From positions 384,001 to 448,000 of the forward strand of contig CAWDDT010000011.1 in the NCBI GenBank assembly GCA_963801165.1: a stretch of 64,000 nt of DNA, written 5' to 3'. The notes under the pieces were generated by a model, which worked only from the letters and a program-made list of their open reading frames with translations, was not told the origin of the DNA and did not search any database. This stretch comes from an uncultured bacterium. Lineage in GTDB: Bacteria; Actinomycetota; Acidimicrobiia; Spongiisociales; UBA5794. Position numbers and translations under genes: made by a program. This document shows positions 36,051-52,531 of the stretch, piece by piece (the first letter of the stretch is position 1; every line of letters begins with the position of its first letter).

Positions 36051-36057
36051 AATGCTC

Positions 36058-36084
36058 AAGTCGGCAGGTGTTGCGTCCAGTCAA
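36058..36084 (-). promoter_or_regulatory. Sigma28-like promoter, EAL-HDOD gene
   Basis: TTGA-N15-GCCGACTT. Confidence 0.6.
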
Positions 36085-36101
36085 CCGGTGTGTTCCGGGC
36101 T

Positions 36102-37052: not shown

Positions 37053-37058
37053 CTCATG

Positions 37059-37144
37059 TACCTCCTTGTAGGGCAGTGCGTCTCACTTCGTCAACATCCA
37101 TGTCAACGCTTCTCTTCTAGTCGGCCGTCCCCGCCTATCGTCAA
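37059..37144 (-). promoter_or_regulatory. Sigma28-like promoter and two CsrA sites, flagellin 2
   Basis: TTGA-N15-GCCGACTA (37118-37144); GGA hairpin 37090-37107; UACAAGGAGGUA 37059-37070. Confidence 0.75.
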
Positions 37145-37277
37145 GTGAATCGCCGCCACGTTGGCGCATTCTCTGCGACCGGCAAACCTAGAGCGGCGGC
37201 CCTGGGGCCGCCGCTCGTTGTGTGTAGGGACCGTCCGTCCTACGAGACATGACTGGCAATCTATGCCAGCGTCTGGC

Positions 37278-38111
37278 TCACTGGAGGAGTTGGAGGACCG
37301 ATGCCGGGACCTGGTTGGCCTGGGCAAGCATCGCAGTGCCCGCCTGAACCATGATCTGATGCCGGGTGAACGACACCATCTCTTCAGCCATGTCGGTGTC
37401 ACGAACCCGGGACTCGGAAGCCGACAGGTTCTCAACAGCGACACTCAGGTTCGCCACCGTGTGCTCCAGACGGTTCTGGGTAGCACCAAGAGTCGACCGG
37501 ACACTGGAAACGTCGCCGATCGCATTGTCGATGGCCGTGATCGCGGCATCGGCATCGGACGACACGTCGACCGAACCGATCGCATGACCGTTGAAGATGC
37601 CATTCGTGCCGGCAACATTGAGCTGAAGATCGCTCGTGATCTTGAGCGTCTGGTCAGCGCCGGAACCGACATGGAACGTCAGCGCGCCACCCGATGCGGC
37701 ATAGTCCTTGAATACACTGTTACCTGCGAATGTGCTGTTGGAACCGATCGCGGTGATCTCCGATAGCAGCTGGGACACCTCGGCCTGCTGGGCAGTACCG
37801 TCGGTGGTTGCAGTGTTGGCCGCATCAACAGCCAACTCACGCATACGCTGCAGGATCGAATGCACCTCATTGAGAGCACCCTCAGCGGTCTGGACAAAAC
37901 TCACACCATCTTGAGCGTTCCGGATCGCCTGACGGGAACCCGAGATCTCCGCACGGAGCGACTCAGACTTCGCCAACCCGGCCGCATCATCAGCAGCACG
38001 ATTGATCCGGAAACCCGAAGACAGCTTCTCGAGCGACTTACTCAACTGAGCATTGGTCGTGGAAAGATTGCGGTATGCGTTGTATGCCGCAATGTTCTGA
38101 TTAATACGCAC
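37278..38111 (-). CDS. fliC: Flagellin (copy 3)
   Basis: Same conserved termini; distinct central region. Confidence 0.97.
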   Translation of the reverse strand: MRINQNIAAYNAYRNLSTTNAQLSKSLEKLSSGFRINRAADDAAGLAKSESLRAEISGSRQAIRNAQDGVSFVQTAEGALNEVHSILQRMRELAVDAANTATTDGTAQQAEVSQLLSEITAIGSNSTFAGNSVFKDYAASGGALTFHVGSGADQTLKITSDLQLNVAGTNGIFNGHAIGSVDVSSDADAAITAIDNAIGDVSSVRSTLGATQNRLEHTVANLSVAVENLSASESRVRDTDMAEEMVSFTRHQIMVQAGTAMLAQANQVPASVLQLLQ

Positions 38112-38117
38112 TTCGTG

Positions 38118-38203
38118 TACCTCCTTGTAGGGCGGTGCGTGACTTCGTCAACATCCATGTCAACGTTTCACCACCACTATCGGCACACGCGGCCACCGTA
38201 TTA
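38118..38203 (-). promoter_or_regulatory. Sigma28 promoter and two CsrA sites, flagellin 3
   Basis: TAAT-N15-GCCGATAG (38177-38203), close to the TAAA-N15-GCCGATAA consensus; GGA hairpin 38147-38164; SD site 38118-38129. Confidence 0.82.
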
Positions 38204-38320
38204 GGCAACGCTCAGTGACTATTTCGCGAATGGTCATCAAGGCTAGACAGCCTTGATCCGATTCCATCGCATCACAGCAGGCATCGTCCGGGTGGGACGG
38301 TGGTTGGAGGCCAGAACACG

Positions 38321-39181
38321 ATGAACAGCCGAGATGCCGAGCATGACACCAACCAACTGGTGAGAGACCATCTCGATCTGGTTGGGCGCACCGTCGCCAA
38401 GGTTTCCGCTCGCTATCCGCGACACGTCGACCGGGAAGAACTGTGGAACGCCGGTGCGCTTGGCCTGGTGGAGGCGGCACGCCGTTACAAGCCCGACTCG
38501 GGAATCCCATTCGAGCGCTTCGCCGCAATCAGGATCCGTGGTGCGATCATCGATTCGACCCGGACGCGGGATTGGGCTTCTCGCTCGGTGCGCCGGCGCA
38601 ACCGCGAGGTCGAGGAGACCAGCTCCGCACTGCGCGACGAAACCGGACGCGACCCCGATCGGGAGACGCTGGCTAATGCCCTCGGCGTCACCATGCAAGA
38701 GCTCGAGAAAACCCAGGCGCAATCGGCGGCCTCGATGCTTCTCTATCTCGATCACCAGAGGCCCGACGACAACGTCTCTCTCCGTGACATGATCGTCGAC
38801 GAAGACACGACCGTGCAGCCGGAAGCCGCCCTGGAGCACCGCGAGATGCTCGGTACTCTTCGCAGCGCGGTCACGGGCCTGCCCGCGACGCACGCCGAGG
38901 TCATCAAGCGCTACTACTTCGACGGCGAGATGCTTCAGGATATCGCCAAGGATCTCGGGGTCACCCAGGCCAGGGTGTCGCAGATCCGCTCCGAGGCCCT
39001 CACCTCGTTGCGCGCCTGGTTCGGTACCCTCTACGAGGGCACCCCTGAGGTCAGCGACGACGCCGCCGGCAAGAGGGCCCGCGCCGCCTACGTGGCACAG
39101 CTCTCCACCGAAACCAACTGGCGCAGCCGGCTCGACGCCGCAGACGACGATCCCGGCCTTGCCTTGATTCTCAACGGCTAG
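38321..39181 (+). CDS. fliA: FliA/WhiG family sigma factor
   Basis: GALGLVEAARRY, RIRGAIIDSTRTRDW, IAKDLGVTQARVSQI; located in flagellar cluster. Confidence 0.92.
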   Translation: MNSRDAEHDTNQLVRDHLDLVGRTVAKVSARYPRHVDREELWNAGALGLVEAARRYKPDSGIPFERFAAIRIRGAIIDSTRTRDWASRSVRRRNREVEETSSALRDETGRDPDRETLANALGVTMQELEKTQAQSAASMLLYLDHQRPDDNVSLRDMIVDEDTTVQPEAALEHREMLGTLRSAVTGLPATHAEVIKRYYFDGEMLQDIAKDLGVTQARVSQIRSEALTSLRAWFGTLYEGTPEVSDDAAGKRARAAYVAQLSTETNWRSRLDAADDDPGLALILNG

Positions 39182-39188
39182 ATCCCCC

Positions 39189-39240
39189 CGACGACGACCT
39201 TTTACTTCTCTCCCTCCTCCCTCCTAAAGGGTCGTCGTCG
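39189..39240. other. 16-bp hairpin with 20-nt all-pyrimidine loop downstream of fliA
   Basis: cgacgacgacctttta / taaagggtcgtcgtcg stem; loop cttctctccctcctccctcc. Confidence 0.75.
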
Positions 39241-39724
39241 CGCCTGAGGTCACTCCCGTCTACTGGTCGCTCTCTGGTTAGCCGACGCACTCGAGGGCGT
39301 CTCAATTCGGCGTCTGGATTCATGGCCATGACCAACTCGGTCGCTGACATGGGCAACGGGTCGGTCTCGGGGTCGGGCTTCTCCCGGAGCACCATCAGAG
39401 CCTCGGGAAGATCCGGGTGATTCTCCGCCAACCATTGGTTGAACGAACCGAGCACAGGAACGTAGCCATCCATCTCTCCGGCAACCCCTGGGACTCGATG
39501 GCGCTGATGAAGTCGTCGGTGAACAGGTTCACCTGCCAGTTGGCTTCCAGCAACCCGGAGCCCAGCGCTCCGGCGGCTTGCAGAATCCGATTGGTGTTGG
39601 GGGTCGGGGTTGGCGACCACGCAGGTCTGGGACCGCTGAGTAGCCGGCAGGATTAGCCGCGTCGTGGTTCGACGCTCTCAACGAAGACCGGCAACTCGTT
39701 TGCCCGCTCGTGCTCTGAGACCAT

Positions 39725-39788
39725 GTCCCTCTCGTGTGGCGTCCCTCTCGTGTGGCGTCCCTCTCGTGTGGCGTCCCTCTCGTGTGGC
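39725..39788. repeat. Tandem repeat, 4 x 16 bp
   Basis: gtccctctcgtgtggc repeated exactly four times. Confidence 0.95.
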
Positions 39789-39974
39789 TTCACCCATCAG
39801 TGCCGCGACGAGCTCGAGCGGATGACAGGGAAGCTGAGATTGGGGGGACGAGTGAAACGCGCTCTCGCCGGCTGTGGATCTACCAACTGGGAGTCCGCAG
39901 AGATACCGGCGGCTTCGCCGCAGGCACCCCTTACCGCCAGAGCACTGGCTGAGTTTGGCACGAGGTCGAACGCA

Positions 39975-40022
39975 AATCTCAAGGAAGCTGAATCTCAAGG
40001 AAGCTGAATCTCAACGAAGCTG
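39975..40022. repeat. Tandem repeat, 3 x 16 bp
   Basis: aatctcaaggaagctg x2 plus aatctcaacgaagctg. Confidence 0.95.
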
Positions 40023-40039
40023 AGGCAGGGACTAGCGAT

Positions 40040-40273
40040 CTATTGATGGATGGTGGCTACCGGGGTCGAGCGGTTGCGCATCTCGGCTGCGCTCACCAGG
40101 ACCGAGGCACGGAACTCGATGATCCGATCGGCGACGACCTCGGGATCGTCGGCAACGACGATGCGCCTGCCGTCGACCAGGGTCAACACCGTGTCGGGTG
40201 TCGCCTCGATCGACTCGATGAGGTCGGCATTGAGGAACATCGGCTCACCTCGAAGTCGATGCACGGCGATCAT
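40040..40273 (-). CDS. flbD: Flagellar FlbD/SwrD family protein
   Basis: MIAVHRLRG..FLNADLIESIEATPDTVLTLVDG; directly downstream of flgE. Confidence 0.92.
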   Translation of the reverse strand: MIAVHRLRGEPMFLNADLIESIEATPDTVLTLVDGRRIVVADDPEVVADRIIEFRASVLVSAAEMRNRSTPVATIHQ

Positions 40274-40321
40274 TTCGTCGTCTCCTTGCCGGGCTGGGTG
40301 CAGCCCTCTAGCTTGTGCCTA

Positions 40322-40348
40322 CTGTCGGCCGGTCCCCCGTGGGATTAA
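40322..40348 (-). promoter_or_regulatory. Sigma28-like promoter, flbD
   Basis: TTAA-N15-GCCGACAG. Confidence 0.7.
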
Positions 40349-40396
40349 CCGCCAACCCTGGTCGGGGCCCCGTCACGGCGGGGCCCGTCATTGAAA

Positions 40397-41623
40397 CTAC
40401 CGCTTGATATTCACCAGATCGGCCAACACCTCGTCGGAGGCGGTGATCACCCGGCTGTTGGCCTGGAAACCGCGCTGGGCGATGATCAGGTTGGTGAACT
40501 CCTGCGCCAGATCGACGTTGCTCATCTCGAGAGCACCCGAGGCAAGCGTCCCGCGGTTGCCGTTGCCCGGCGCACCAATGAGTGGTTGACCGGAGTTCAC
40601 GGACGCCTCAAAGCGGGTCTCGCCGGACCGGATCAGACCGGACGGGTTGTTGAAGGTTGCGGTGGCGATCATGGCCAACACCTTCGTCTCACCGTTGGAG
40701 AACTGGCCGCTGATCGTGCCGTTGGCCGCAATGGCGAAGTCGGTGAGGAAGCCAATGGCATTGCCGTTCTGGTCGACGCTCTCTGCGCTCGAGTTGCCAC
40801 CGAACTGAACCAGCGGCGAGTTGCTGTCGAGTACCAAGTCGAGACCGAGCGGCGAGGCGCCCGGAGGCGTGTAGCCGCTGACCGCGATCGTGCCGGTGCT
40901 GGTCAGCTCGCCGTTGGAGTCAAAAGTCACCGAGGTCGAGCCAAGCGTGAGGTTGGTGCCGTTCATCGACGCCGATACGTCCCACGTGTTCGCTGAGGTC
41001 TTCTCGAATTGGACCATCAGCTCCTGGGGCTCACCGAGTGAGTCGTAGACCACGATCGAGGTGGTGTGGGTGTCCCCGATCACGGCATCGGCCGACAGGT
41101 TGCCCCCGACGTGCACGGTCGAGGTCTCGACGGGCTCGATCACCTGGGCGAGAGGCAGCTTGATCGACTGAACGGCGGTCTGGGTCTCGACGCTGCCGTC
41201 GGCGGCGGCGAGCCAACCCTGGACGAGCTGGCCACCCGGCGCCACCAGGTTGCCGGACTCGTCCCAGCGGAACGTTCCGGCCCGGGTGAACTGCCGTCCG
41301 GAAGCGGCCTCGAGGACGAAGAAGCCGTCGCCCTCGATGGCAATGTCCGTAGGACGGCCGGTGATCTGAATGGCACCCTGAGTGAAGACGCCATCGATGG
41401 AAGCGACCTGGACACCGAGCCCGATCTGGAGGGGGTTGGTACCGCCGGACTCGACACCGGCACCAGCCGGGCCCTGCAGCGTTTGCGCCATCGCCTCACC
41501 GAAGGTGATTTGGGCGCTCTTGAATCCTGCCGTGTTGACATTGGCGATGTTGTTGCCCACCACGTCCATCATGGTTTGGTGGGAACGAAGACCGGATACA
41601 CCGGCAAACATCGAACGCATCAT
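40397..41623 (-). CDS. flgE: Flagellar hook protein FlgE
   Basis: MRSMFAGVSGL, GNNIANVNTAGFK, TRAG, LEMSNVDLAQEFTNLIIAQRGFQAN. Confidence 0.96.
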   Translation of the reverse strand: MMRSMFAGVSGLRSHQTMMDVVGNNIANVNTAGFKSAQITFGEAMAQTLQGPAGAGVESGGTNPLQIGLGVQVASIDGVFTQGAIQITGRPTDIAIEGDGFFVLEAASGRQFTRAGTFRWDESGNLVAPGGQLVQGWLAAADGSVETQTAVQSIKLPLAQVIEPVETSTVHVGGNLSADAVIGDTHTTSIVVYDSLGEPQELMVQFEKTSANTWDVSASMNGTNLTLGSTSVTFDSNGELTSTGTIAVSGYTPPGASPLGLDLVLDSNSPLVQFGGNSSAESVDQNGNAIGFLTDFAIAANGTISGQFSNGETKVLAMIATATFNNPSGLIRSGETRFEASVNSGQPLIGAPGNGNRGTLASGALEMSNVDLAQEFTNLIIAQRGFQANSRVITASDEVLADLVNIKR

Positions 41624-41669
41624 GTTGCATCACCCCTAGTGTGATGTCACTCCGTCCGTAGATGGCTGA

Positions 41670-41787
41670 GCCACCACATCCGTGGGCGGCGTCTGTTTGC
41701 AAGCGCAGCAGCCGGTCACCGCTGGAGTCGCGCCCCGGGCACAACGTCGCTCGCCAAACACCGTCGGCGAAGCCACCCCGGGGTTAA
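41670..41787 (-). promoter_or_regulatory. Sigma28-like promoter and CsrA-type hairpin in flgE leader
   Basis: TTAA-N15-GCCGACGG (41761-41787); GCCGCCCACGGAUGUGGUGGC (41670-41690). Confidence 0.7.
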
Positions 41788-41802
41788 GCAGTGTCGGGAG
41801 AA

Positions 41803-42423
41803 TCAGGAGGAGCTGGCGTGGCGAATGACCGGAGTGCCCGGCACCGCCGTGGCGCGGGCCTCGATCAGCCGGTTCATCACCTCGGGGGGGTCCACACGGG
41901 CAGCGGTGCTGCAGAGCACGACGGTGAAAGCGGGAACGAGAAAGAACTCTTCGCCGTCGTCGAGCGTCAGTGGTGTCGAGTCGAGCGCCCTCTCGATCCG
42001 GGCCACCACGGGAGCGACCCCGTCGTCGGACATCATCGGCATGACCGACACGAACCCGTCTTCATCGATCCGACCAACCGTATCGAGCTGACGGACCGCG
42101 GCGCCCACGAGCGAGCCGGCGTGGCGCATGGCTTCTTCGAGTGCCCGCCGCCCCCGCTCCGCGGAGATGCGAGGGAACGCAGGGAAACCGACGTGCATCA
42201 ATCCGAAAGCCTCACCCGAACGCGAGTACCGGGCTGCCGCTTTCTGTAACTGGGCGGCTATCCCGTTGCTGTTCGGCAGCCCGGTGACGATGTCGGTCGA
42301 CGTGAGCATGTCGAGCTGAAGCCGGAGCACACCGTTGTCGGCTTCGGCCTCTTCCAGCCTCGCCTCGAGGTGCGCGATACGCTCCTCGGCGCCTTCACCT
42401 TTCGTGGTGCCACCCGGGTTCAT
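41803..42423 (-). CDS. Coiled-coil plus degenerate GGDEF domain protein
   Basis: DIVTGLPN; RQLD at the I-site position; GRIDEDGF in place of GRxGGDEF. Confidence 0.8.
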   Translation of the reverse strand: MNPGGTTKGEGAEERIAHLEARLEEAEADNGVLRLQLDMLTSTDIVTGLPNSNGIAAQLQKAAARYSRSGEAFGLMHVGFPAFPRISAERGRRALEEAMRHAGSLVGAAVRQLDTVGRIDEDGFVSVMPMMSDDGVAPVVARIERALDSTPLTLDDGEEFFLVPAFTVVLCSTAARVDPPEVMNRLIEARATAVPGTPVIRHASSS

Positions 42424-42469
42424 CAGCTCCCCAATCCGTTGGCTGAAAGTTACCAGTGCGATAGCCGTA

Positions 42470-42571
42470 CATTCGGCACCGCGATCGCCCACCTTGAGCA
42501 TATCGGACGGCGGTTCCCAGGCTCAAAGAAACCCCCGCCGACACTTAACCGACGGCCCCTTCCGCCGACTG
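42470..42571. promoter_or_regulatory. Divergent pair of sigma28-like promoters (GGDEF gene and flgN-flgK operon)
   Basis: Minus strand TCAA-N16-GCCGAATG (42470-42497); plus strand TTAA-N15-GCCGACTG (42545-42571). Confidence 0.7.
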
Positions 42572-42579
42572 GTTTTCCA

Positions 42580-43080
42580 ATGGCTACATCAACCGGATTC
42601 ACCCACATGTCCGAGCTGGCAGACACCCTGTGGTACGAGCGGGGCCTGCTCGAGTACCTGCTGTTCAAGCTGGTGTCGGCCAACCTCGTGCTGATCGCCG
42701 ACGATCGCCGCTTCGTAGGACCGGCCATTGCCGAGGTGGAAGCAGTGATGAAGGAGATACGGCGAGCCGAGGAGCAACGCAGCCTGGTTGTTGCGAAGGT
42801 AGCCGAGGAGTACGACGTACCGCACCGCGCGGTAGGGCTCGCCTTTCTCGCCGAAAACGCCCCCGCCTCGCTCCGAGCCGTCTTCGAGGATCACATGACC
42901 CGTTTCATGGATCTCGTCAATGAGATCGAAACCCTCACCAAGGCGAACCAGCGTCTGGCCAGGGTCGCCCTCGACGGCATCCGGGGGACCCTCGGGTTCG
43001 CCGGCGGTGACATCTACGACGCGGCCGGAAGGGCCACCAGGACTCCCGACCATCCGCTCCGAGTGGACCAGGTGCTCTGA
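42580..43080 (+). CDS. flgN: FlgN-family export chaperone (actinobacterial type)
   Basis: LADTLWYERGLLEYLLFKL, EVEAV, YDAAG; immediately upstream of flgK. Confidence 0.82.
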   Translation: MATSTGFTHMSELADTLWYERGLLEYLLFKLVSANLVLIADDRRFVGPAIAEVEAVMKEIRRAEEQRSLVVAKVAEEYDVPHRAVGLAFLAENAPASLRAVFEDHMTRFMDLVNEIETLTKANQRLARVALDGIRGTLGFAGGDIYDAAGRATRTPDHPLRVDQVL

Positions 43081-44447
43081 TGAGTGACTTCATATCGCTA
43101 TACACGGCATTCAGCGGTTTGACCGCCGCTCAGGCTGGTATCGATACAGCGTCAAATAACGTGGCCAACGCCTCGAACCCCGGCTACACCCGACAGCAGG
43201 TCGACCTCGTCAGCCGAGACCCCTATTACCGCCGCTACGGGGTGGTGGGCCAGGGCGTCGATGTCGCCGGCATCACCCGTGCCCGGGTCGCAGGTCTCGA
43301 TGCCCAGGTCCGGCTGTCTTCGAGCGCCCAGGGGCGTCTCGACACCCTTGCCGACCTGCTCGCCGGTACCGAATCGGTGATGGGGGAACCGAACTCCGGG
43401 ATAACCTCGTCGATGACCGGCCTGTGGAGTGCCCTCGACGAGCTACAGCTCGATCCTCCCAACGCCTCCGCCCGACAACACGTGATCTCGGCGCTCGGCG
43501 ACGTTGCCAGGACCATCAACAGCGTATCCGACAAGTGGAAGATCGAGGAGACCACGGCTTCCGATTCACTCTCCAGCTACGTCGACAAGACAAACGACAT
43601 GCTGCGAGACCTCGCCGATCTCAACAAGCAGATCCTCAACGCCGGTGCGTTTCGGGGTGATCCAAACGCTCTCCTCGACCAACGCGATGACCTCCTCGAC
43701 AAGCTCGCCGGGCTCGCAGGCGTCTCTGTCACCATCGCCGACAACGGTGCGGCCCGGGTCAGCCTGAACGGGCTGGCGCTGGTGTCCGACACGGTGGTTA
43801 GCCCGCTCTCGTACAACGAGACGACCCACGAGATAAGCCATTCCTCGGGAGCCGTCGTCAAAGCGGGTGGGGATCTGGCCGGCTACCAGAGCTACCTCCA
43901 GACCGAGCTTCCCCGGTTTGTCGACGCCCTCAATTCATTCGCCAAGGACCTCGCCAACGCGCTGAACGCCCAGCACGCCGCCGGGTATACCCCGGATGGG
44001 TCGTCGGGCGGCGACCTCCTCGGCTTTGCCGTAGGGGACGAAGCGGCCACCTTGACCGTGGCCGTCTCGAACGCCTCCGAGATCGCGGCCGCGGGCTCCG
44101 GCGCCCCGGTCGCCGACTACGACGGCTTGAACGCCGAGGCGCTTTCCCAGCTCAGACAGACTCTGAGTGCAGCCGGCGGCACGACCAATCTCGACGACTC
44201 ACTCCGCGACGTGATATCGCTTGTCGGGGAGATGACGGCGGCGGCTGCCACGGGGGCAAGGAGCCAAGCCGCCCTCACCAGCGCCGCAGAGAACTCGCGG
44301 ATGCAGGCACACGGTGTCTCGATCGACGAGGAGATGGTGAATCTGATCACCTACCAGCGTGCCTACGAAGCCGCCGCCAGGGTGATGACGGCGGTCGACC
44401 AGAACCTCGACACATTGATCAACCGGACCGGCATGGTGGGGAGGTAG
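43080..44447 (+). CDS. flgK: Hook-associated protein FlgK
   Basis: NNVANASNPGYTRQ, LLDQRD, GVSIDEEMVNLITYQRAYEAAARV. Confidence 0.96.
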   Translation: MSDFISLYTAFSGLTAAQAGIDTASNNVANASNPGYTRQQVDLVSRDPYYRRYGVVGQGVDVAGITRARVAGLDAQVRLSSSAQGRLDTLADLLAGTESVMGEPNSGITSSMTGLWSALDELQLDPPNASARQHVISALGDVARTINSVSDKWKIEETTASDSLSSYVDKTNDMLRDLADLNKQILNAGAFRGDPNALLDQRDDLLDKLAGLAGVSVTIADNGAARVSLNGLALVSDTVVSPLSYNETTHEISHSSGAVVKAGGDLAGYQSYLQTELPRFVDALNSFAKDLANALNAQHAAGYTPDGSSGGDLLGFAVGDEAATLTVAVSNASEIAAAGSGAPVADYDGLNAEALSQLRQTLSAAGGTTNLDDSLRDVISLVGEMTAAAATGARSQAALTSAAENSRMQAHGVSIDEEMVNLITYQRAYEAAARVMTAVDQNLDTLINRTGMVGR

Positions 44448-44449
44448 CC

Positions 44450-45334
44450 ATGCGTGTAACCCACCTCGGAGCACACCAGGCAGCCCTTGAAAGGCTCGGC
44501 AGCCGGCTGTCCGAATACACGGCAACCCAGGACCGGCTTTCCACGGGCAAGAAACTGACCCGATCCTCCGACGACCCAATCGGCATGAACCGGGCGCTCG
44601 AGCTGAGGGCGACTCTCGCCGCCCGGCAGCAAGAGACCCGCAACGCCGACGACGGCAAGATGTGGCTGGACCTCGCCGACACCACTCTCCAGGACGTGGT
44701 CACCCAGATCCAGCGAGCGCGCGAGCTGGCGGTGCGCGGCTCGACCTCAGTGGGGCCACAGGAACGGGAGGCGATCGCCCTGGAGGTGAGTCACCTCCGC
44801 GACGACATCGTCTCGCTGGCCAACGCGAAGCACCAGGGCCGCGGCCTGTTCTCCGGGTTCAGTTCGGGTGATGCTGTCCAGAAGATCGCAGGCAACTGGA
44901 CGTACACCGGAGACACCGGTCAGATCAATCGCCGGGTCGGGGAGAACGAGGTCGTCACGGTGAACGTCACCGGCGACGTAGCCCTCGGATTCTCGGCAGG
45001 CGACGATATCTTCACGGTGCTCGACAACCTCGAGGCGTCGTTGTATGCGAACGACACAACGGGAATCGAGACCTCTATCGCCGACCTCGATTCGAGCCTG
45101 GACACGGTGCTCGGCGGTCTTGGGACGATCGGCGCCCGCACCAACCAGGTGGAAGCCGCGCTCGGACGCACCCAGCACGACATCCAGTCGATCACCGACC
45201 AGCTCTCCTCGATCGAGGACGTAGACATAGCAGAAGCGGTCATGGACCTGCAGCTTCAGAAAACCGCATACGAGGCTGCGCTGGCGGCGTTCTCGCAGTC
45301 ATCGCGGACCTCACTGCTCGACTTCCTCTACTAG
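44450..45334 (+). CDS. flgL: Hook-associated protein FlgL
   Basis: LSTGKKLTRSSDDP, IEDVDIAE, YEAAL, SLLDFL. Confidence 0.95.
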   Translation: MRVTHLGAHQAALERLGSRLSEYTATQDRLSTGKKLTRSSDDPIGMNRALELRATLAARQQETRNADDGKMWLDLADTTLQDVVTQIQRARELAVRGSTSVGPQEREAIALEVSHLRDDIVSLANAKHQGRGLFSGFSSGDAVQKIAGNWTYTGDTGQINRRVGENEVVTVNVTGDVALGFSAGDDIFTVLDNLEASLYANDTTGIETSIADLDSSLDTVLGGLGTIGARTNQVEAALGRTQHDIQSITDQLSSIEDVDIAEAVMDLQLQKTAYEAALAAFSQSSRTSLLDFLY

Positions 45335-45397
45335 ACGTCTCCGCCTACAGCGTGGGACTAACTCGTTGTTTCGAGTTGCCGGATTAACCTATCCCCA

Positions 45398-45832
45398 ATG
45401 ACCGACGAGCCGACAAGAGATCAGAGAGAGCACAAAGCGGTTCTCGAGAAGGCGCTGCACTTCCCCGACGGCCTGCCCGGTCTGCCGGATCTCGAGAATT
45501 TCGTCATCGTCGAGCTGCGGGAGGACGGGGCTTTCCAACAGCTGCAGAGCCTCGACAACATCGATGTGTCGATAGTCGTGTGTGTACCCTGGCTCTTCTT
45601 TCCAGACTACGCCCCGGCGCTTTCCGACATCGAGCAGGCCGAGCTCGGGCTGGAGAAGCCCGACGAGGCCATACTGTTCGTACCGGTTTCGATCGATCCG
45701 GACAGCCACCAGATCTTCCTCAACTTGCTGGGCCCGTTTGTCGTCAACTCGAGAACCCACAAGGGTCGGCAACTGGTGCTGACCGGGACCAGCTACACGA
45801 CACGGACGCCGATCGAACTGCCGGGGACCTGA
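45398..45832 (+). CDS. fliW: Flagellar assembly factor FliW
   Basis: FPDGLPGL, LQSLD, PWLFFPDY, NLLGPFVVN..GRQLVL. Confidence 0.92.
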   Translation: MTDEPTRDQREHKAVLEKALHFPDGLPGLPDLENFVIVELREDGAFQQLQSLDNIDVSIVVCVPWLFFPDYAPALSDIEQAELGLEKPDEAILFVPVSIDPDSHQIFLNLLGPFVVNSRTHKGRQLVLTGTSYTTRTPIELPGT

Positions 45833-46059
45833 TGCTTGTACTGACACGAAGGCCAGGGGAATCGATCATCGTCGGCGAGAACATCGTGGTGACGGTCATC
45901 GAGATCAAGGGCGGCCAGGTACGTATCGGGATCGACGCCCCGCGTGAGGTGGACGTCTACCGCGAGGAGATTTACGAGCAGGTCAAGCAGGAGAACCTGT
46001 CGGCAATCGCCAACGCCGAGCAGATCCGGCGCGCGGTCCAGGATCCTTCCACGCCGTAG
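45832..46059 (+). CDS. csrA: Carbon storage regulator CsrA
   Basis: MLVLTRRPGESIIVG, VRIGIDAPR, YREEIY, plus C-terminal ENLSA extension typical of FliW-partnered CsrA. Confidence 0.96.
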   Translation: MLVLTRRPGESIIVGENIVVTVIEIKGGQVRIGIDAPREVDVYREEIYEQVKQENLSAIANAEQIRRAVQDPSTP

Positions 46060-46125
46060 CGCTGACGGCGGGCCAACACGAAACCCACCGTCGGTAGAGT
46101 TCGAGTTGTCCACCCAGGAGGTTCC

Positions 46126-46809
46126 ATGCGCAAGGCGCTGTCTGTAGCTTCTCTGGCGATCGCGTTGACACTGCTCGGCTCGGGCATCGCGTTCGCCGCG
46201 CACCAGTTCACCGACGTCCCCGACGGTCACGTGTTCCACAGCGATATCTCGTGGCTGGCCGATCACGGGATCACCAAGGGCTGTAACCCGCCGGGCAACG
46301 ACGAATACTGCCCCGATGATGCCGTCACCCGTGGGCAGATGGCGGCGTTCTTGCACCGGTTCGGTGACATCGACATCTCGACCACCATCGCCATCGACCA
46401 GTTCGGTTTCACCCCGGTTCGCGACAACCACACTTTCCTCGACTACGACTACCAGGCGGCGGGGAATCTCGGTCGATACTCGACAGACATTCTCGGGGCA
46501 TCCGTCCCGGTTCCCGACGGGGCGACAATCACCGGGCTCTCGGCAACGTTTTGCGACTCGACATCCATGGACGACTACGTCGCCCGGCTCCTCCGCCGAC
46601 CAGACCCAGCCGTTAGCGCGCCTGCCGAGGTTCTGGCTGAGGTGAGCAGCTCGGGCGCAGACTGTGCGATGACGGTGTCGACAACATCGATCAACGACCC
46701 GGAGGTCGACACCTCCGCCTATTCGTACGCCATTTTGATCACCAGCGCCACCGGGAACGTCAACATCCGCCGGGCAACGGTCACCTACGACATGCCGCTC
46801 GTGCCGTAG
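46126..46809 (+). CDS. Secreted S-layer homology (SLH) domain protein
   Basis: Signal peptide ending AFA, FTDVPDGHVFHSDISWL..GITKGC..YCPDDAVTRGQMAAFL. Confidence 0.85.
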   Translation: MRKALSVASLAIALTLLGSGIAFAAHQFTDVPDGHVFHSDISWLADHGITKGCNPPGNDEYCPDDAVTRGQMAAFLHRFGDIDISTTIAIDQFGFTPVRDNHTFLDYDYQAAGNLGRYSTDILGASVPVPDGATITGLSATFCDSTSMDDYVARLLRRPDPAVSAPAEVLAEVSSSGADCAMTVSTTSINDPEVDTSAYSYAILITSATGNVNIRRATVTYDMPLVP

Positions 46810-46818
46810 GCGTGGGTG

Positions 46819-47343
46819 CTACGCGTTGTAGTCGAAGAAAGACGACGATGTCGCCGGGGGCGTAGTGAGTCCGATGGCGTCATAGCCGGAACGACCGAAG
46901 GCCGTAGGTTCGACGCGATCGATCGCCCTGGTGATATTGTCGATCCTCTCGACCACCATGCGCGAGCCCAACTCCTGCAGCTCCTTGATCTCGTCCATCG
47001 TGGCGACCATGCGCCGCTTGAGGCCCTCGAGTGGCGCAACCGCCAGGTCGGGGGCATATGCGATGAGCTGGGTGAGGGTCAGGCTGTCGTTGGCGAGCCC
47101 GAGGGCGGCGGTGACATCGCCGACCAGCATCGACCTGGCCACCTCGAGGGCACCGAGGTCGTCACGGATGGCATCGATCTCGTCGAAGATCTTGGGAAGA
47201 AACCGGGACTCGTCGGCTCGGGCCAGCATCTCCGCCTGCGTCAGCTTGAAGGTCAGCCGCTCCAGAATCGACAACTCGCGATTGAGTACGCCGACGAGAG
47301 CGATGTAGCGCTCATTGATGAGGAGTTTCACTGAGGTTGCCAT
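46819..47343 (-). CDS. Second FlgN-family protein
   Basis: LVGVLNRELSILERLTFKL aligns by eye with the flgN at 42580; YDAIG near the C-terminus. Confidence 0.7.
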   Translation of the reverse strand: MATSVKLLINERYIALVGVLNRELSILERLTFKLTQAEMLARADESRFLPKIFDEIDAIRDDLGALEVARSMLVGDVTAALGLANDSLTLTQLIAYAPDLAVAPLEGLKRRMVATMDEIKELQELGSRMVVERIDNITRAIDRVEPTAFGRSGYDAIGLTTPPATSSSFFDYNA

Positions 47344-47382
47344 GGCATGCTCCGCACGCTCAACTTCCGGCCGTCTTCGATC

Positions 47383-47451
47383 CTGTCGGCACCCGATCGA
47401 GCCGAATAAGGACTGTCGTGGCGCTTAGGCAGGCGCCCGATCGGTCGACAG
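47383..47451. promoter_or_regulatory. Divergent pair of sigma28-like promoters
   Basis: Minus strand TTAT-N15-GCCGACAG (47383-47409); plus strand TTAG-N15-GTCGACAG (47425-47451). Confidence 0.6.
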
Positions 47452-47457
47452 GATGGG

Positions 47458-47700
47458 GGTCCACCCGCACGGAGGCGGGCAGCGAGGTACAAGGAGGTAC
47501 GTCCCGCAAGGACCCGTTGTCCATCAGGCTGCTGCCGTCCGTCTTCACAGACGGAGTTTCGGAGTCCTCAGCGGCTCCATCCGTCTTCAACCGCCAACCG
47601 TGACGACGCCCGGCGGCAGCCGGCAACGGACATGGTGCCGGGGTAAGCGATGGTCCCCTCACACCGCCGTTGGTGGATCGTTGAGCCCCGGCACCAAGAA
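47458..47700 (+). ncRNA. Candidate CsrA-binding small RNA
   Basis: Hairpins CCCGC-ACGGAG-GCGGG, GUAC-AAGGAG-GUAC, CCGGCA-ACGGACAUGG-UGCCGG; further GGA motifs; 11-bp stem 47633-47643/47686-47696; no convincing ORF. Confidence 0.45.
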
Positions 47701-47730
47701 ACCCTCGCCGGATCAGCCCTTCTGCCCTGC

Positions 47731-47967
47731 TCAGTCGTTTGCCCGTCGTTGCGGGCGCTCCGCTCCCTGACGCTCCATGGAACCGGCCATCGCAGACAGC
47801 CCGATCCTTCCGATCAGTCTGACCACGACCACAGCACCAAACGTCATCCCCGCCCTGATGGCCGCGTCGACGATATCCAGATCCCCCGAAGCGACGCCGT
47901 AGGCGATGAGCCCGATGGCGATCAGACCCAGCATGGCCGCGAGCCGGTTGATCGGATTGCCGCTCAT
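47731..47967 (-). CDS. Small two-TM membrane protein
   Basis: ATGA-coupled to the upstream gene; two hydrophobic segments. Confidence 0.7.
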   Translation of the reverse strand: MSGNPINRLAAMLGLIAIGLIAYGVASGDLDIVDAAIRAGMTFGAVVVVRLIGRIGLSAMAGSMERQGAERPQRRAND

Positions 47968-49220
47968 CGGCGCCCCACCATCCGCCGCACGGCGAGCGCA
48001 ACGTCAGTCGGCTGTGCCCGCACCATCGACGACACGAACCCGTCGACGGTCCCATATCCGAGGGTGGCGCCGAGAGTGAACGCCAAATACAACGCATCCG
48101 CGACGGCCGTCTCGCCGACCCAGGAGACCGCTACGGGCTCGCCGATCAACAGATCCTGCCATCGCTCGTCGCCGATAACCAGATGGATGCCCCGGCCGCC
48201 CCGCACAAACTCCAACCACTGCCGGTCGGCGGGTGTGTCGTCCACCATCGCACAGAACGAGCCGGCATATGGAGCCATGTCCCCGGACCGGATCAGGGGC
48301 AGACCGAGCGGCTCGGCAAGACGCTCGGCGTGCGGCCCGACCACGATGACGTCGCCTTCGGGCAGCGGCCCGCAGTGGGGCGCCACGGTAGCGGCGATGC
48401 GGTCGATCCAACCCATGTCGTCATTCCCGTCGAGATCGGTGACCGCGGCGATGATCGGGGCGGGGAGACCGAGCCTGAGCAGAGCCGTGGTGCTCCAAGC
48501 GATCCGGCCCATGCCATGGGGAGCGTCGATCGGCTCCGCGGTACGCCACCAACCGGTGTCGCCATCTGCCACCGTCATGTCCTGGTCGGGTGCCGTCTCC
48601 CGCTCATCAACCGGGGCCGGCTCCGCGTAATCCTCTCCCGCGGCCTCCGTGACCTCCACGGCGAGCAATGCCGGGAAGACCACAGCCGGCGTCTCGACCT
48701 CGGGATCTGTAGGTGCGACCTCGGATTGCCGAGCGTCTTCGGCAGGCTCGGGATCGGTGACTGCCAGCAGCGCCGGGCCCACGACGACGGGCTCCGGGAC
48801 CTCGTCGGCAAACGGGGGCACGAAATGCACTTCGGGTGCGCTGTCCTCGAGCGGCTCGGGGGCAGGCAGGGCGGCAACGCCGCCGTCCTCGTCCGCTACC
48901 GCCAGCTCACGCTGTAGCACCGTCCGGAAGTCGGAGTCTTCGGCGTCGGCGCTCTGCGCCATCCGCTCCAACACGTCGGCGATCCCTCCACCCTGAGGCC
49001 GGGAAGGCGGGCGAAACTGTGCCGGAGCCGCGGTGCGCCGCCGCCTGGCGGTCAGCTGCACCATCTCCTTGGCAAAGAATCCACCCACTCCACCGCGGTG
49101 TACCTTCTGGGCCCGCATGATCTCGGCATCCTCGCCAAACTGGGCAGAGATCTCGGCAAGGGCATCTTCGACGGTCGGGGCTTCGACCGTCACCTGGTCG
49201 GGGTTGGCTGATTCAAGCAT
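47964..49220 (-). CDS. FlhF-like protein lacking an intact GTPase P-loop
   Basis: N-terminal TVEDALAEI..GEDAEI..GGVGGFFAKE resembles the FlhF start; follows flhA; VIVVGPHAERL where VGPTGxGKT is expected. Confidence 0.65.
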   Translation of the reverse strand: MLESANPDQVTVEAPTVEDALAEISAQFGEDAEIMRAQKVHRGGVGGFFAKEMVQLTARRRRTAAPAQFRPPSRPQGGGIADVLERMAQSADAEDSDFRTVLQRELAVADEDGGVAALPAPEPLEDSAPEVHFVPPFADEVPEPVVVGPALLAVTDPEPAEDARQSEVAPTDPEVETPAVVFPALLAVEVTEAAGEDYAEPAPVDERETAPDQDMTVADGDTGWWRTAEPIDAPHGMGRIAWSTTALLRLGLPAPIIAAVTDLDGNDDMGWIDRIAATVAPHCGPLPEGDVIVVGPHAERLAEPLGLPLIRSGDMAPYAGSFCAMVDDTPADRQWLEFVRGGRGIHLVIGDERWQDLLIGEPVAVSWVGETAVADALYLAFTLGATLGYGTVDGFVSSMVRAQPTDVALAVRRMVGRR

Positions 49221-51258
49221 TTGCTAACGCTGCTCCTATGACTCCGATTGGTTCGAGTTCGATATCTGGGGGAAGTTCGGGGTAAGCGAGAGCCGGTACG
49301 TCGAGTCCCATGCCGCGGAGGCTCTTGGTGAGCGGTCCACGCAGGGCCTGACCGACGACCAGCGCACACGGCTTCTGGGCCCTCGCCGCTGCTCCGGCGA
49401 GGTGGTCGACGTCGATACGCACGACGTCGAGCTTGGAGGGGTCCATCACGAGGAATATCTGCCCGTCGACCTCCCGCAAGGACTCGTGCATACCGGCTTC
49501 GAGGCTGGGGGCAAGGGTCATCACTGCGAGGTGTCCCTCCGGGGCAATCCTGGCGACGATCGAGCGACCGACCGCCACCCGGGCAGCGGAGGCCAATTGC
49601 TCGGCCGACTTCGTCTCGCGGGCACGGTTGGAGATGACCTCGACGATCGGCCCAAGGTCTCGAATCGAGACCCGGTCCTCGAGCAGCTTCCTCAGCACGC
49701 CGTGGAGCAGACCGAGCGGGAGGACCTCGGTCGATACCTCGTTGGCCAGGATCGGCTCGTCGTATCGAAGGCCGTCGACAAGGGCCTGGACGTCCTGCCG
49801 GCTCAGCAGCGAGGCGGCATTGGATCTGACCACCTCGGCCAGGTGGGTGACGATGACCGAGGAGCGGTCCACAGCGGTTGCACCGGTAGCGGCTGCGGCC
49901 GCTCGGGCCGAATCCGCCACCCAGAATGCCTTGAGCCCGAACACCGGCTCTACCGTCTCCGTTCCTCCCATGGCGCGCAGCTCCTCGCCGTCGCCGAGCG
50001 GAAGCGCCAGGATCTGATCTTGCGGTGCGGTCCCCCGCCCTACCTCGGTGCCGCGCAGCACGATGCTGTAGGTCGCAGGCGGGAGCGACACGTCGTCCCG
50101 CGTTCGGACGAACGGCATCACAACCCCGAGCTCGAGAGCGATCTGGCGGCGCAGCGACTTGACCCGATCGAGCAGGTCGCCCTTCTTGCCCGGATCTATG
50201 AGATCGAGGATGTCATAGGAGAGACGCAGCTCGAGCGGCTCGACTCGCATCTCCCCCATGAGCGCCTCGGGGGCATCGGGGTCGAACGCGACCGAAAGCG
50301 TCGCGTCGGCCTCGCTTGGCTCGATAGCGTCGAGAGCTGCCCGCCTGCTGCTGGCGAAGATGAGAATGCCGGCGAAAGCGAAGAACGGGATCTTGGGAAG
50401 ACCGGGCAACATGCCGAGACCCGCTACCGAGATGCCGGCAAAACGCATGGCTCTGGCGTTGCCAAACAGCTGGCTGCCGATCTCGGAACCGATGTCCTTC
50501 TCCGAACCTACCCTGGTCACGAGCAGGCCGGTAGAGATAGAAATCAGCAAAGCGGGAATCTGGCTCACCAGACCGTCACCAACCGAGAGCAACGAGAACG
50601 TGCTGACGGCCTCCGAGAAATTCATCCCGAGGACGCCCATCCCGACGGCCAGTCCGCCGAACAGGTTGATGACGACGATAACGATGCTGGCGATAGCATC
50701 GCCCTTGACGAACTTGGCGGCACCATCCATCGCCCCGTAGAAGTCTGCCTCGGTGGCGATGCGCTTGCGTTGAGCTCTCGCCTGGGTTTCGTCGATCAGA
50801 CCCGCACCCAGGTCGGCGTCGATGGCCATCTGCTTGCCGGGCATTGCGTCCAACGTGAACCTCGCCGCCACCTCGGCGACACGGGTGGCACCGTTGGTGA
50901 TGACAACGAACTGGATGACGATCAGGATCAGGAACACGACCAGACCGACGATCACCGAACTGCCGATCACGAAATTGCCAAAGGTGTCGATGACCTTCCC
51001 CGCGTTGCCGTCGAGGAGGATGAGCCTGGTCGAGGAGACATTGAGGGCCAGCCGGGTCAGCGTCGTCACCAGCAAGAGCGACGGGAACACCGAGAAATCG
51101 AGGCTGTCCGAGAGAAGGATGACACCGAGCAGCACGAGAACGGAGATCGTGATGTTGGCCGCCAGCATCGTGTCGAGCACCGTGGCCGAGATGGGAATGA
51201 TCATCATCAGGATCACCCCGATGAGGGTCATGGGAACGACAACCGAGGAGCGCTTCAT
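49213..51258 (-). CDS. flhA: Flagellar export protein FlhA
   Basis: FSVFPSLLL, RVAEVAARFTLDAMPGKQMAIDADL, FYGAMDGAAKFVKGDAIA. Confidence 0.97.
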   Translation of the reverse strand: MKRSSVVVPMTLIGVILMMIIPISATVLDTMLAANITISVLVLLGVILLSDSLDFSVFPSLLLVTTLTRLALNVSSTRLILLDGNAGKVIDTFGNFVIGSSVIVGLVVFLILIVIQFVVITNGATRVAEVAARFTLDAMPGKQMAIDADLGAGLIDETQARAQRKRIATEADFYGAMDGAAKFVKGDAIASIVIVVINLFGGLAVGMGVLGMNFSEAVSTFSLLSVGDGLVSQIPALLISISTGLLVTRVGSEKDIGSEIGSQLFGNARAMRFAGISVAGLGMLPGLPKIPFFAFAGILIFASSRRAALDAIEPSEADATLSVAFDPDAPEALMGEMRVEPLELRLSYDILDLIDPGKKGDLLDRVKSLRRQIALELGVVMPFVRTRDDVSLPPATYSIVLRGTEVGRGTAPQDQILALPLGDGEELRAMGGTETVEPVFGLKAFWVADSARAAAAATGATAVDRSSVIVTHLAEVVRSNAASLLSRQDVQALVDGLRYDEPILANEVSTEVLPLGLLHGVLRKLLEDRVSIRDLGPIVEVISNRARETKSAEQLASAARVAVGRSIVARIAPEGHLAVMTLAPSLEAGMHESLREVDGQIFLVMDPSKLDVVRIDVDHLAGAAARAQKPCALVVGQALRGPLTKSLRGMGLDVPALAYPELPPDIELEPIGVIGAALANA

Positions 51259-52301
51259 GCGACCTTCCTTCGGGGCCGGCGCCTATAGGCGACCGCAAGC
51301 ACGGCGGCCACCGCCTCGAACAGGTTCGCCGGGACGAACCCACCCAGCTTGACCCGCCGGTAGAGCGTCCGCGCCAGGGGCTTGTTCTCGACGAGGGGAA
51401 CACCGTTACGGCGGGCTTCGGCGCGGATCTTGGCGGCGATTCTGTTGGCGCCCTTGGCTACGATCCGGGGCGACGGCTCATCGGGTTCGTACTTCAGGGC
51501 GATGGCCAGCCGGGTCGGGTTGGTGATCACGACATCGGCGTTGGCCACATCGAAGATCATCCGGTTCCGGCTCATCTCCCGGGCACGCTGCCTCCGGGCC
51601 GACCGGACCATCGGGTCACCCTCAGACCGCTTGAACTCCTCCCGCATCTCCTGCTTGGTCATCTTCATCTCTTTGTTGTGACGGACGCGGGTGACGGCGT
51701 AGTCGGCACCGGCGATGACGACGGCAAGGCCGGCGGCCCGCAGCACGATGGCCCACACCTGGTCTCCGGTAAAAGAGATAGCGTCGATAATCCCCAGCGG
51801 CTCGCCGAGACGGTCCATCCAGGCCATCAGGGGCCCCCAGATGAATGCGACCAACAGCCCTACCTTGCCCACAGCCTTGACCAGCTCCCACATGAACACG
51901 GATGCCTTGAACCGGTTGAGGCCCTTCTTGAGGGAGAGGTTGGAGAGCTTGGGCTTTGCGGCCTTGGGGGCGATAGTGAACCCGACCTGGGCGACACCAC
52001 CGGCGATCCCAAAGACCACGGCGGCGACCAGGAACGGGACCAGCCCGACCAGGAGCATCGCCAGGACGTCCCCCTGGAGCTGTGGCTGAATCGTCCCCGT
52101 ACCGGCGACGGATAGGATGGAACGAACCCGCTCCGTTATGGCGCCGGCGGCGGGAGGGGCCATGAAACGGATGGCCAGGACGAGCATGATCATCGAGAGC
52201 GCAACGCCGACTTCCTGGGACTTGGCGACGCGACCCTCTTGGCGGGCATCCCGCTTACGTCGCTCTGACGGCTTTTCTGTCTTGTCCTGAGAACGGCTCA
52301 C
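51255..52301 (-). CDS. flhB: Flagellar export protein FlhB
   Basis: DKTEKPS, GRVAKSQE, KMTKQE..EGDP, VITNPTR autocleavage motif. Confidence 0.96.
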   Translation of the reverse strand: MSRSQDKTEKPSERRKRDARQEGRVAKSQEVGVALSMIMLVLAIRFMAPPAAGAITERVRSILSVAGTGTIQPQLQGDVLAMLLVGLVPFLVAAVVFGIAGGVAQVGFTIAPKAAKPKLSNLSLKKGLNRFKASVFMWELVKAVGKVGLLVAFIWGPLMAWMDRLGEPLGIIDAISFTGDQVWAIVLRAAGLAVVIAGADYAVTRVRHNKEMKMTKQEMREEFKRSEGDPMVRSARRQRAREMSRNRMIFDVANADVVITNPTRLAIALKYEPDEPSPRIVAKGANRIAAKIRAEARRNGVPLVENKPLARTLYRRVKLGGFVPANLFEAVAAVLAVAYRRRPRRKVA

Positions 52302-52367
52302 GCACGACTCCGGTAGTCGGTTCAGCCATTCCATTGGCAACGAAGCCGATCCTTCGGCCTTGTGACC

Positions 52368-52394
52368 CTGTCGGCGGGTGCGGAGACGACGTAA
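52368..52394 (-). promoter_or_regulatory. Sigma28-like promoter upstream of flhB
   Basis: TTAC-N15-GCCGACAG. Confidence 0.6.
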
Positions 52395-52531
52395 GGGGGT
52401 TGTGCGACGGGCGACAGACTCGGGACATTGGTCCCTAGCCACCGGCCGGCAGCCGAAGCAGAATGGATTCTCTGCTCGAGTCTGCGCCTCGGCAGCGGAG
52501 GGAAGATACCGGCTCACAAAGGAGTAGGCGG

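Follow-up and report, generated by a model that had tools for sequence, protein, structure and literature searches.

We describe here a candidate RNA of about 240 nt, which occupies roughly positions 47457-47697 of the plus strand in a window of 64,000 nucleotides (C11:384001-448000) from the genome of an uncultured bacterium of the Acidimicrobiia (Actinomycetota) (G000; 4.55 Mb in 13 contigs). Positions given without a contig or locus name are those of the window. The RNA unit lies within a 387-nt gap (47344-47730) in a flagellar gene cluster, with flgN2 on one side and orf78-flhF on the other. Its distance from fliW-csrA is about 1.4 kb, in agreement with a preliminary description of the sequence, which had placed it near these two genes. 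We consider it very likely that the unit is a real, conserved and probably transcribed non-coding RNA. Its function is a more difficult question: the chances seem to us about even that it acts as a decoy for CsrA, timed by sigma28 (FliA), each RNA holding one CsrA dimer. The organisms compared are known from metagenome-assembled genomes (MAGs) only.

Conservation, probable transcription and folding of the RNA unit

Searches with blastn found the region in 9 of the 14 other genomes of the genus and in 0 of 26 genomes of other genera. With a covariance model of the promoter and 5′ domain (model R1), the element was detected in 10 of the 15 genomes of the genus, the window genome included, and in none of 118 genomes from 29 other genera of the family. 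Scanning one genome from each of 185,579 species for the exact pattern returned eight loci, all in MAGs. Within the genus, the element is present in all nine genomes that carry csrA and in one whose contig begins 646 nt before the element, and it is absent from all five genomes without csrA. The comparisons below use ten loci, representing nine distinct species of the genus with G000 included.

The 64 alignment columns of the 5′ domain have a mean pairwise identity of 0.84. The corresponding values are 0.745 for the FlgN2 protein, 0.46 for the 15-nt promoter spacer and 0.41 for the four-fold sites of the adjacent flgN2 gene; neutral sites between these species are saturated. Judged by these identities, the 5′ domain of the RNA is under purifying selection. 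Invariant or nearly so in the nine species are GUCC, CCCGCA-N-GGA-N-GCGGG, GGUACAAGGAGGUA and GGACCCG. Also conserved are a helix of the CGGARUC/GAUUCCG type, a GGA at most about 12 nt from the last hairpin, and the last hairpin itself with its apical ACCGCCGUUGGYGG. The species differ in the length of the RNA (about 200 to about 360 nt), and all of this variation is in the middle domain.

Evidence for transcription comes from public sequencing runs, 20 of which were listed as containing part of 44000-50000. One of them, a salt-marsh metatranscriptome (X20), is recorded as RNA. A 218-nt contig from this run (record 19, depth 3.8) is identical to 47468-47685, with 0 differences. It is confined to the unit, extending into neither flgN2 nor orf78. 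The run otherwise contributes, over 44000-50000, two 151-nt contigs in fliW (45544-45823, depth 2); parts of this interval without X20 contig cover carry no meaning, and contigs of this kind reveal neither which strand was transcribed nor where a transcript truly begins and ends. In the DNA runs, all 30 bins of the stretch are covered. The pattern of X20 contigs fits a discrete, relatively abundant small transcript.

The plus strand of 47455-47705 folds with a z-score of -5.2, and none of 200 shuffled sequences folded as well. The z-score of the whole RNA is more negative on the plus strand in eight of the nine species, and is strong only in three (-5.4, -4.2 and -3.0). In the 5′ domain, where two hexaloop hairpins are enclosed by helix P1, 95.6% of cells across the nine species contain standard pairs. 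RNAalifold gave 18 consensus pairs for the terminal hairpin, four of them with compensatory changes. The hairpins put forward in the preliminary description recur in relatives; compensatory changes are seen in the terminal hairpin, and in the 5′ domain the stems hardly vary, so that covariation speaks neither for nor against them. The terminal hairpin is present in all nine species, including three in which the downstream neighbour is other than orf78-flhF. It is probably a terminator; a simple terminator scan does not report it, and it has no U tract.

Several pairs in the terminal hairpin are of the G-U type, which would become A-C mismatches if the opposite strand were transcribed, and G-U pairs also occur in helix P3. 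The plus strand is favoured because of these G-U pairs, and the same orientation follows from the promoter, from the GGA motifs (UCC on the other strand) and from homology to a leader that precedes an open reading frame (ORF) in related genera, as described below.

The GGA motifs of the two hexaloops are at 47471-47473 and 47493-47495, 22 nt apart, the second within AAGGAGG. Both hairpins had been recognised, with their CANGGANG loops, in the preliminary description; they lie where it had put them, and both loops keep to CANGGANG in all nine species. In hairpin 1 the GGA is invariant, while loop positions 2 (C/U/A) and 6 (G/A/C/U) vary; in hairpin 2 GGTACAAGGAGGTA is invariant in nine of nine species. 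The unpaired probability ranges over these species from 0.72 to 1.0 for the loop of hairpin 1 and from 0.53 to 1.0 for that of hairpin 2. These two are the only GGAs unpaired in every species; the other five in G000 have unpaired probabilities of 0 to 0.45 and are mostly in stems. A third looped site, ACGGA at 47626, followed by a long closing hairpin, had also been proposed. The positions of both were correct (ACGGA, 47626-47630), but the GGA is only partly exposed, with an unpaired probability of 0.45.

Ahead of the RNA is the plus-strand motif TTAG-N15-GTCGACAG, back-to-back with the promoter of flgN2, exactly as first described. The sigma28 consensus has a TAAA-like -35 element and a GCCGATAA-like -10 element, 15 nt apart. 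GCTWAG and GYCGACAGG are found in all nine species, always exactly 15 nt apart, the sequence of the spacer itself being only 46% identical. The motif resembles the promoters of the four flagellin genes of G000, CTTAC-N15-GTCGACTG, CTAAT-N15-GCCGATAG and CTTGA-N15-GCCGACTA. All 10 loci share an unchanged -10 element of the divergent flgN2 promoter (CCTGTCGGC when read on the plus strand). A simple promoter scan found no sigma70 promoter. The RNA would be transcribed from this putative sigma28-type promoter.

After the GGAGG of hairpin 2 there is no ATG, GTG or TTG before a TTG at 47517, which is 19 nt away; in the flagellin genes the corresponding distance is 5 nt. One alternative is that the unit serves as the leader of a short coding frame, perhaps one beginning at this TTG and encoding a peptide repressed by CsrA. 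The TTG is kept in eight of nine species (CTG in G006), inside a conserved GGACCCGTTG, and opens a frame of 28 codons in G000. However, the frame from this position has 28, 1, 76, 51, 2, 2, 43, 55 and 83 codons in the nine species and yields no shared peptide, and no other ORF is common to them. The spacing from GGAGG differs from that of the flagellin genes, and the conserved GGACCC is accounted for as the 3′ strand of helix P1. We therefore consider a small-ORF leader very improbable, and the preliminary view that the unit holds no convincing ORF is borne out.

Explanations without any functional RNA would be that the region acts as DNA, as a control region of flgN2 bound by a transcription factor, or that it is the decaying relic of an HD-GYP gene leader. 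Both hairpins are also DNA palindromes (CCCGC-N6-GCGGG and GTAC-N6-GTAC), located about 55-115 bp upstream of the -35 element of the flgN2 promoter, and invariant stems lacking covariation are also expected from sequence-specific DNA binding. A palindromic operator, however, requires neither the asymmetric GGA that is invariant in both loops nor an exact match to the flagellin Shine-Dalgarno sequence. A role as DNA is also made less likely by the G-U pairs of P3 and of the terminal hairpin, by the conservation of that hairpin, about 180 nt further on, and by the RNA-library contig that covers the unit. A decaying relic is excluded because the 5′ domain has an identity of 0.84, compared with 0.41-0.46 at adjacent neutral sites. 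Taken together, these explanations appear improbable to us, and we return to the unit as an RNA.

Resemblance to the flagellin leaders

The preliminary description had noted that hairpin 2 repeats the Shine-Dalgarno sequence of the flagellin genes with no start codon at normal spacing. This proved to be a precise relationship. The 13-mer TACAAGGAGGTAC has exactly five copies in the 4.55-Mb genome, of which four sit 5 nt before a flagellin GTG and the fifth is in the RNA, where no start codon lies within 19 nt. In the window, when up to two mismatches were allowed, six occurrences were observed, against a mean of 0.36 in its shuffles. The fourth flagellin gene is outside the window, and its 13-mer is at C11:474943-474955.

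All four flagellin leaders also carry an identical CGTTGACATGGATGTTGACG hairpin, CGUUGAC-AUGGAU-GUUGACG (7-bp stem, AUGGAU loop), about 32 nt ahead of the Shine-Dalgarno site. This textbook-looking hairpin is a predicted CsrA site 1. The RNA unit likewise contains two GGA sites, one in an upstream loop and one in a Shine-Dalgarno loop, arranged in the bipartite manner of hag/flaA-type leaders; the start codon and translated ORF of such a leader are missing from it. A workable spacing of two sites for one CsrA dimer is 10-63 nt.

Tandem CANGGANG hexaloop hairpins (stems of at least four pairs, at most 60 nt apart, on one strand) occur at two places in the genome, the RNA locus and C9:137855. 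The second pair (G000:C9:137855-137930, plus strand) consists of UUUCAAGGAUGGAA and CGUCACGGAGGACG. A further CAAGGAGG hexaloop lacking a start codon, at about 11872 on the minus strand of the window, is antisense within a coding frame and was put down to chance.

The features of the RNA unit, the flagellin leaders and the neighbouring genes are collected in the table.

Table. Positions of the RNA unit, related leader elements and surrounding genes
Feature	Position	Strand	Remarks
Sigma28 (FliA)-like promoter of the RNA, CTTAG-N15-GTCGACAG	47424-47451 (TTAG from 47425)	+	sequence motif
5′ domain: helix P1 (GGGUCC 47457-47462 with GGACCC 47510-47515) around two hexaloop hairpins	47457-47515	+	centroid fold
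Hairpin 1, CCCGC-ACGGAG-GCGGG, CANGGANG hexaloop	47464-47479	+	predicted CsrA site 1
Hairpin 2, GGUAC-AAGGAG-GUAC, CANGGANG hexaloop	47486-47500 (GUAC stem 47487-47500)	+	predicted CsrA site 2; contains flagellin Shine-Dalgarno 13-mer
Variable middle domain: conserved CGGARUC/GAUUCCG-type helix and GGA 47628-47630 before terminal hairpin	47516-47633	+	
Conserved terminal hairpin GGUGCCGGGG...ACCGCCGUUGGUGG...CCCCGGCACC	47634-47695	+	without U tract
Divergent sigma28-like promoter of flgN2, CTTAT-N15-GCCGACAG	47383-47410 (C11:431383-431410)	-	back-to-back with RNA promoter
Flagellin Shine-Dalgarno 13-mers in the window	38117-38129, 37058-37070, 34602-34614	-	
Flagellin-leader upstream hairpins	34640-34660, 37095-37115, 38150-38170; L015:1466-1486	- (window positions)	
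Three flagellin genes	33760-34596, 36201-37052, 37278-38111	-	
FliA/WhiG-family sigma factor	38300-39181	+	187.2 bits; subfamily cut-off 189.6
flgN-like, flgK, flgL	about 42600-45334	+	names from translations, without domain scan
fliW	45398-45832	+	Pfam FliW, E = 9.4e-31
csrA, 75 amino acids	45832-46059	+	start overlaps fliW stop by one base; Pfam CsrA, E = 9.5e-27; NCBIfam CsrA 94.7 bits, cut-off 73
SLH-domain protein	46126-46809	+	
flgN2, second FlgN-family gene	46819-47343	-	Pfam FlgN 30.7 bits, cut-off 30.5
orf78	47731-47967	-	
flhF-like ORF	47964-49220	-	weak FlhF N-terminal match, 29.9 bits, cut-off 174
flhA, flhB	49213-51258, 51255-52517	-	names from translations, without domain scan
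Sister-genus loci with leader and HD-GYP gene	L026-L035, e.g. L030:2668-4164	-	

Origin from the leader of an HD-GYP gene

In ten genomes from nine other genera of the family, all with csrA, the syntenic slot holds a leader followed by an HD-GYP gene of about 500 codons. The gene order in these sister genera is fliW-csrA-flgN2-[promoter, leader]-HD-GYP-orf78-flhF, with flgN2 divergent and orf78-flhF convergent. The sister leaders begin with a GCCGACAGG promoter of the GCCGAC(A/T)GG type, contain a GGA-loop hairpin that is of the CANGGANG type in most (read by eye), and continue with (C/G)ACAAGGAGGU, or CACACGGAGGUG in one genome, followed 5-9 nt later by GTG or ATG. The ORF that starts there encodes a protein with a C-terminal HD domain of the HD-GYP type (Pfam HD_5, E = 5.7e-27). 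In this set one HD-GYP ORF is cut by a contig end and one, in G016, is apparently frameshifted; one more contig, the eleventh, did not extend far enough to decide. The best match of model R1 fell on the sister leader in six loci, with E-values of 0.004-0.02 that are to be taken as rough. This arrangement, with a sigma28-like promoter and a leader that has two predicted CsrA sites like those of flagellin, suggests that in the sister genera FliA and CsrA control the breakdown of cyclic di-GMP (c-di-GMP) together with flagellin. In the G016 locus (L033, G016:C7, minus strand, about 2263-3760) the HD-GYP ORF that follows the leader stops after 62 codons, and tblastn aligns residues 40-497 in a different frame; the frameshift marks a pseudogene or else a mistake of assembly in this nine-contig genome.

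Within the genus of the window, blastx of the ten loci and of the whole window against the sister proteins revealed no HD-GYP remnant; the best E-value was 0.025 for the 440-nt regions, and the window gave no match at 1e-3. The only full-length HD-GYP homologues that the genus has share about 35% identity and are found at a distance of 20-38 kb. The one in G000 (C11:469640-471035; L043:1038-2505) has about 33-34% identity to the sister query protein and begins right at the end of another gene, the stop codon of one overlapping the start codon of the other. It consists of two overlapping frames of 405 and 372 amino acids, so this copy may be frameshifted. We treated this homologue as a paralogue and not as the missing gene in a new position. 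A second covariance model, of the 3′ domain (model R2), had no significant match in the 11 sister loci; its best E-value was 0.13, and no match lay downstream of the HD-GYP gene.

Because the same promoter and leader precede an HD-GYP gene in the same slot in the sister genera, the element is the orphaned leader of a predicted CsrA target, retained after loss of its ORF and with an end of its own that was either acquired or kept. The RNA thus descends from the leader of a gene, putatively controlled by sigma28 and CsrA, for an HD-GYP c-di-GMP phosphodiesterase; the ORF was lost in the ancestor of the genus, and the leader kept under selection.

A GGDEF-domain protein (41806-42501, minus strand) and an EAL-HDOD protein (34734-36059, minus strand) are also encoded within the flagellar cluster of G000, so that c-di-GMP genes are still linked to motility genes here despite the loss of the leader-associated HD-GYP gene. 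On the other side of the leader, the flgN2 gene of G005 (L002) was found to have a frame, read from the conserved LVNERYIAL motif, that stops after 47 codons, the remainder being recovered in pieces by tblastn; flgN2 may be frameshifted in that MAG. Downstream, no orf78 or flhF was found by tblastn within about 1.1 kb past the terminal hairpin in G012, G006 and G004 (L009, L010 and L006), in which respect the other seven loci differ. Since these three genomes keep the element without orf78 or flhF downstream, the RNA stays with flgN2 and csrA and not with the flhF operon.

Proposed function and relation to known Csr systems

The decoy mechanism that we propose would work as follows. The RNA would be made from its sigma28 (FliA)-type promoter at the same time as flagellin. 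Its 5′ domain, a predicted three-way junction, would display two CANGGANG hexaloops 22 nt apart, and a single CsrA dimer could clamp both loops as it would on the flagellin leaders, the second loop being letter-for-letter the flagellin Shine-Dalgarno hairpin. CsrA bound in this way would repress nothing, because no start codon or ORF follows. Each molecule of RNA would draw one CsrA dimer away from the four flagellin mRNAs, and the decoy would add a sigma28-timed RNA layer to the partner switch formed by FliW, CsrA and flagellin, with the feed-forward effect on flagellin that the preliminary description had proposed. Promoter use, the strand and ends of the transcript, CsrA binding and the effect on flagellin are all predictions from sequence.

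Several observations weigh against this account. The RNA evidence comprises one contig from one run of one study, with a depth of 3.8, and DNA carry-over is possible. A degenerate version of the promoter pattern matched the genome five times, all within C11:372990-507926, and a reversed control also matched five times, so the motif alone is not significant. Six of the nine species have whole-RNA z-scores between -0.9 and -1.8, and G006 folds better on its minus strand. Covariation gives the 5′ domain no support, its stems being invariant; 282 of 500 shuffles reached the observed score. G000 has seven GGAs where 4.2 are expected, a count reached by 26 of 500 dinucleotide shuffles, and the number is not significant in six of the other eight species. 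Only two of the sites are good, which would allow one dimer per RNA, and titration would require the RNA to be abundant relative to CsrA. Co-occurrence with csrA is to be expected in large part, since the two are physically linked within the flagellar cluster. Finally, a pure decoy role does not account for the conserved middle helix or for the terminal loop ACCGCCGUUGGUGG, and these hint at a further or different function.

The last of these points is the starting point for another explanation, in which the RNA binds CsrA and has a primary role other than titration. One possibility is a small RNA that acts by base-pairing, with CsrA on the 5′ domain governing its stability or pairing; another is a CsrA-sensing unit in which the terminal hairpin controls read-through antisense into the convergent orf78-flhF-flhA-flhB operon. 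The middle helix (CGGARUC/GAUUCCG) and the apical ACCGCCGUUGGUGG are conserved in nine species and are not needed by a two-site decoy, and the RNA is directed at the flhF operon in 7 of the 10 loci. On the other hand, no target was identified, no systematic target search having been made, and the strongest conservation is that of the CsrA-site mimic itself. The three loci without orf78-flhF downstream (G012, G006 and G004) keep the hairpin, which argues against an antisense role on that operon. As for precedents, McaS and GadY, which depend on Hfq, are reported to antagonise CsrA, an effect seen on overexpression. According to the excerpted text of PMC7652899, these base-pairing small RNAs of E. 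coli are bound by CsrA, which may join RNA-RNA interactions. They are small RNAs with few GGA sites that are able to bind CsrA, as is predicted for the candidate RNA; in sequence they are unrelated to it. We regard this explanation as rather unlikely, yet as the one to be taken most seriously beside the decoy.

The preliminary description had proposed a CsrA sponge and compared it with the CsrB/RsmZ-type sponges of Gammaproteobacteria. A CsrB/Rsm sponge has many GGA sites, more than about four, exposed in hairpin loops or single-stranded spacers. The candidate RNA resembles CsrB/CsrC and RsmX/Y/Z in its proposed activity, the competition of GGA hairpin loops with mRNAs for CsrA. It differs from them in having two reliable sites instead of many, in a sigma28-like promoter instead of transcription dependent on BarA-UvrY/GacA, and in its evolutionary origin. 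Its GGA counts are not clearly above those of shuffled sequences, and a cmscan search of 35000-50000 against Rfam, with E-values up to 10, found no Csr/Rsm family; a match to snoRNA sR1 on the minus strand (16.1 bits, gathering score 45) was dismissed as chance. The analogy to CsrB/RsmZ therefore holds for the proposed activity and fails for membership of the family, and the preliminary interpretation is supported in part. The genomic setting differs as well: the candidate RNA lies beside fliW, whereas CsrB/RsmZ small RNAs are anti-correlated with it. In the excerpts of Zere et al. (2015; PMC4682653), the phylogenetic distributions of RNA antagonists (CsrB/Rsm) and of FliW are described as strongly anti-correlated, and Actinobacteria are named among the groups possibly using FliW. 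A study of actinobacterial flagella (PMC10746217) simply has CsrA and FliW among the proteins searched for.

The closest parallel is the flaA leader of Campylobacter jejuni. As reported in excerpts of Dugar et al. (2016; PMC4894983), this leader has two GGA hexaloops 21 nt apart, resembling high-affinity CANGGANG loops. It titrates CsrA alongside FliW and competes for it with other flagellar mRNAs, and in the same excerpts FliW-containing bacteria, C. jejuni and H. pylori among them, are said to be without antagonising small RNAs. The two cases have in common that they belong to the flagellar regulon and to a FliW-CsrA system lacking CsrB-type small RNAs. They differ in that flaA is a translated mRNA with a dual function, whereas the RNA unit has no start codon or ORF, has a terminal hairpin of its own and derives from an HD-GYP leader, not from a flagellin gene; it would be a dedicated RNA. 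CsrA binding and titration were demonstrated for flaA, whereas for the RNA unit both are predicted.

In Bacillus subtilis, hag is transcribed by SigD. The hag leader, as far as the excerpted sources describe it, resembles the present case in its two GGA stem-loops, one of them over the Shine-Dalgarno sequence, in the position of fliW beside csrA, and in a CsrA with an extended C-terminus (75 amino acids in G000). On the same sources, hag is unlike the RNA unit in being a repressed target and not an antagonist, and its switch operates at near-equimolar protein ratios. The excerpts of PMC7652899 and PMC13443453 present a Hag-FliW-CsrA partner switch with FliW as the antagonist, and describe no RNA antagonist for it.

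Our search of open-access papers and bioRxiv, at the level of titles and the starts of abstracts, returned no RNA antagonist of CsrA in Actinomycetota and no free-standing, ORF-less one in a FliW-type system. That such an antagonist evolved here, inside an ancestral FliW-type Csr system of the Actinomycetota and from a CsrA-repressed HD-GYP mRNA that lost its ORF, is a tentative proposal to which we give somewhat less than an even chance. If it is true, the idea that RNA antagonists and FliW are alternatives would meet a counter-example in this free-standing decoy, which lacks an ORF and is placed next to fliW-csrA; the nearest described case is the translated flaA mRNA of C. jejuni. The Csr system of the Actinomycetota would thereby gain its first proposed RNA component. 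RNA and protein antagonists of CsrA could then coexist, and CsrA sponges could be born from the leaders of CsrA's own targets. The locus captures an evolutionary intermediate, a leader with its gene in the sister genera and without it in the genus of the window, and for this reason the origin of CsrA sponges is directly testable.

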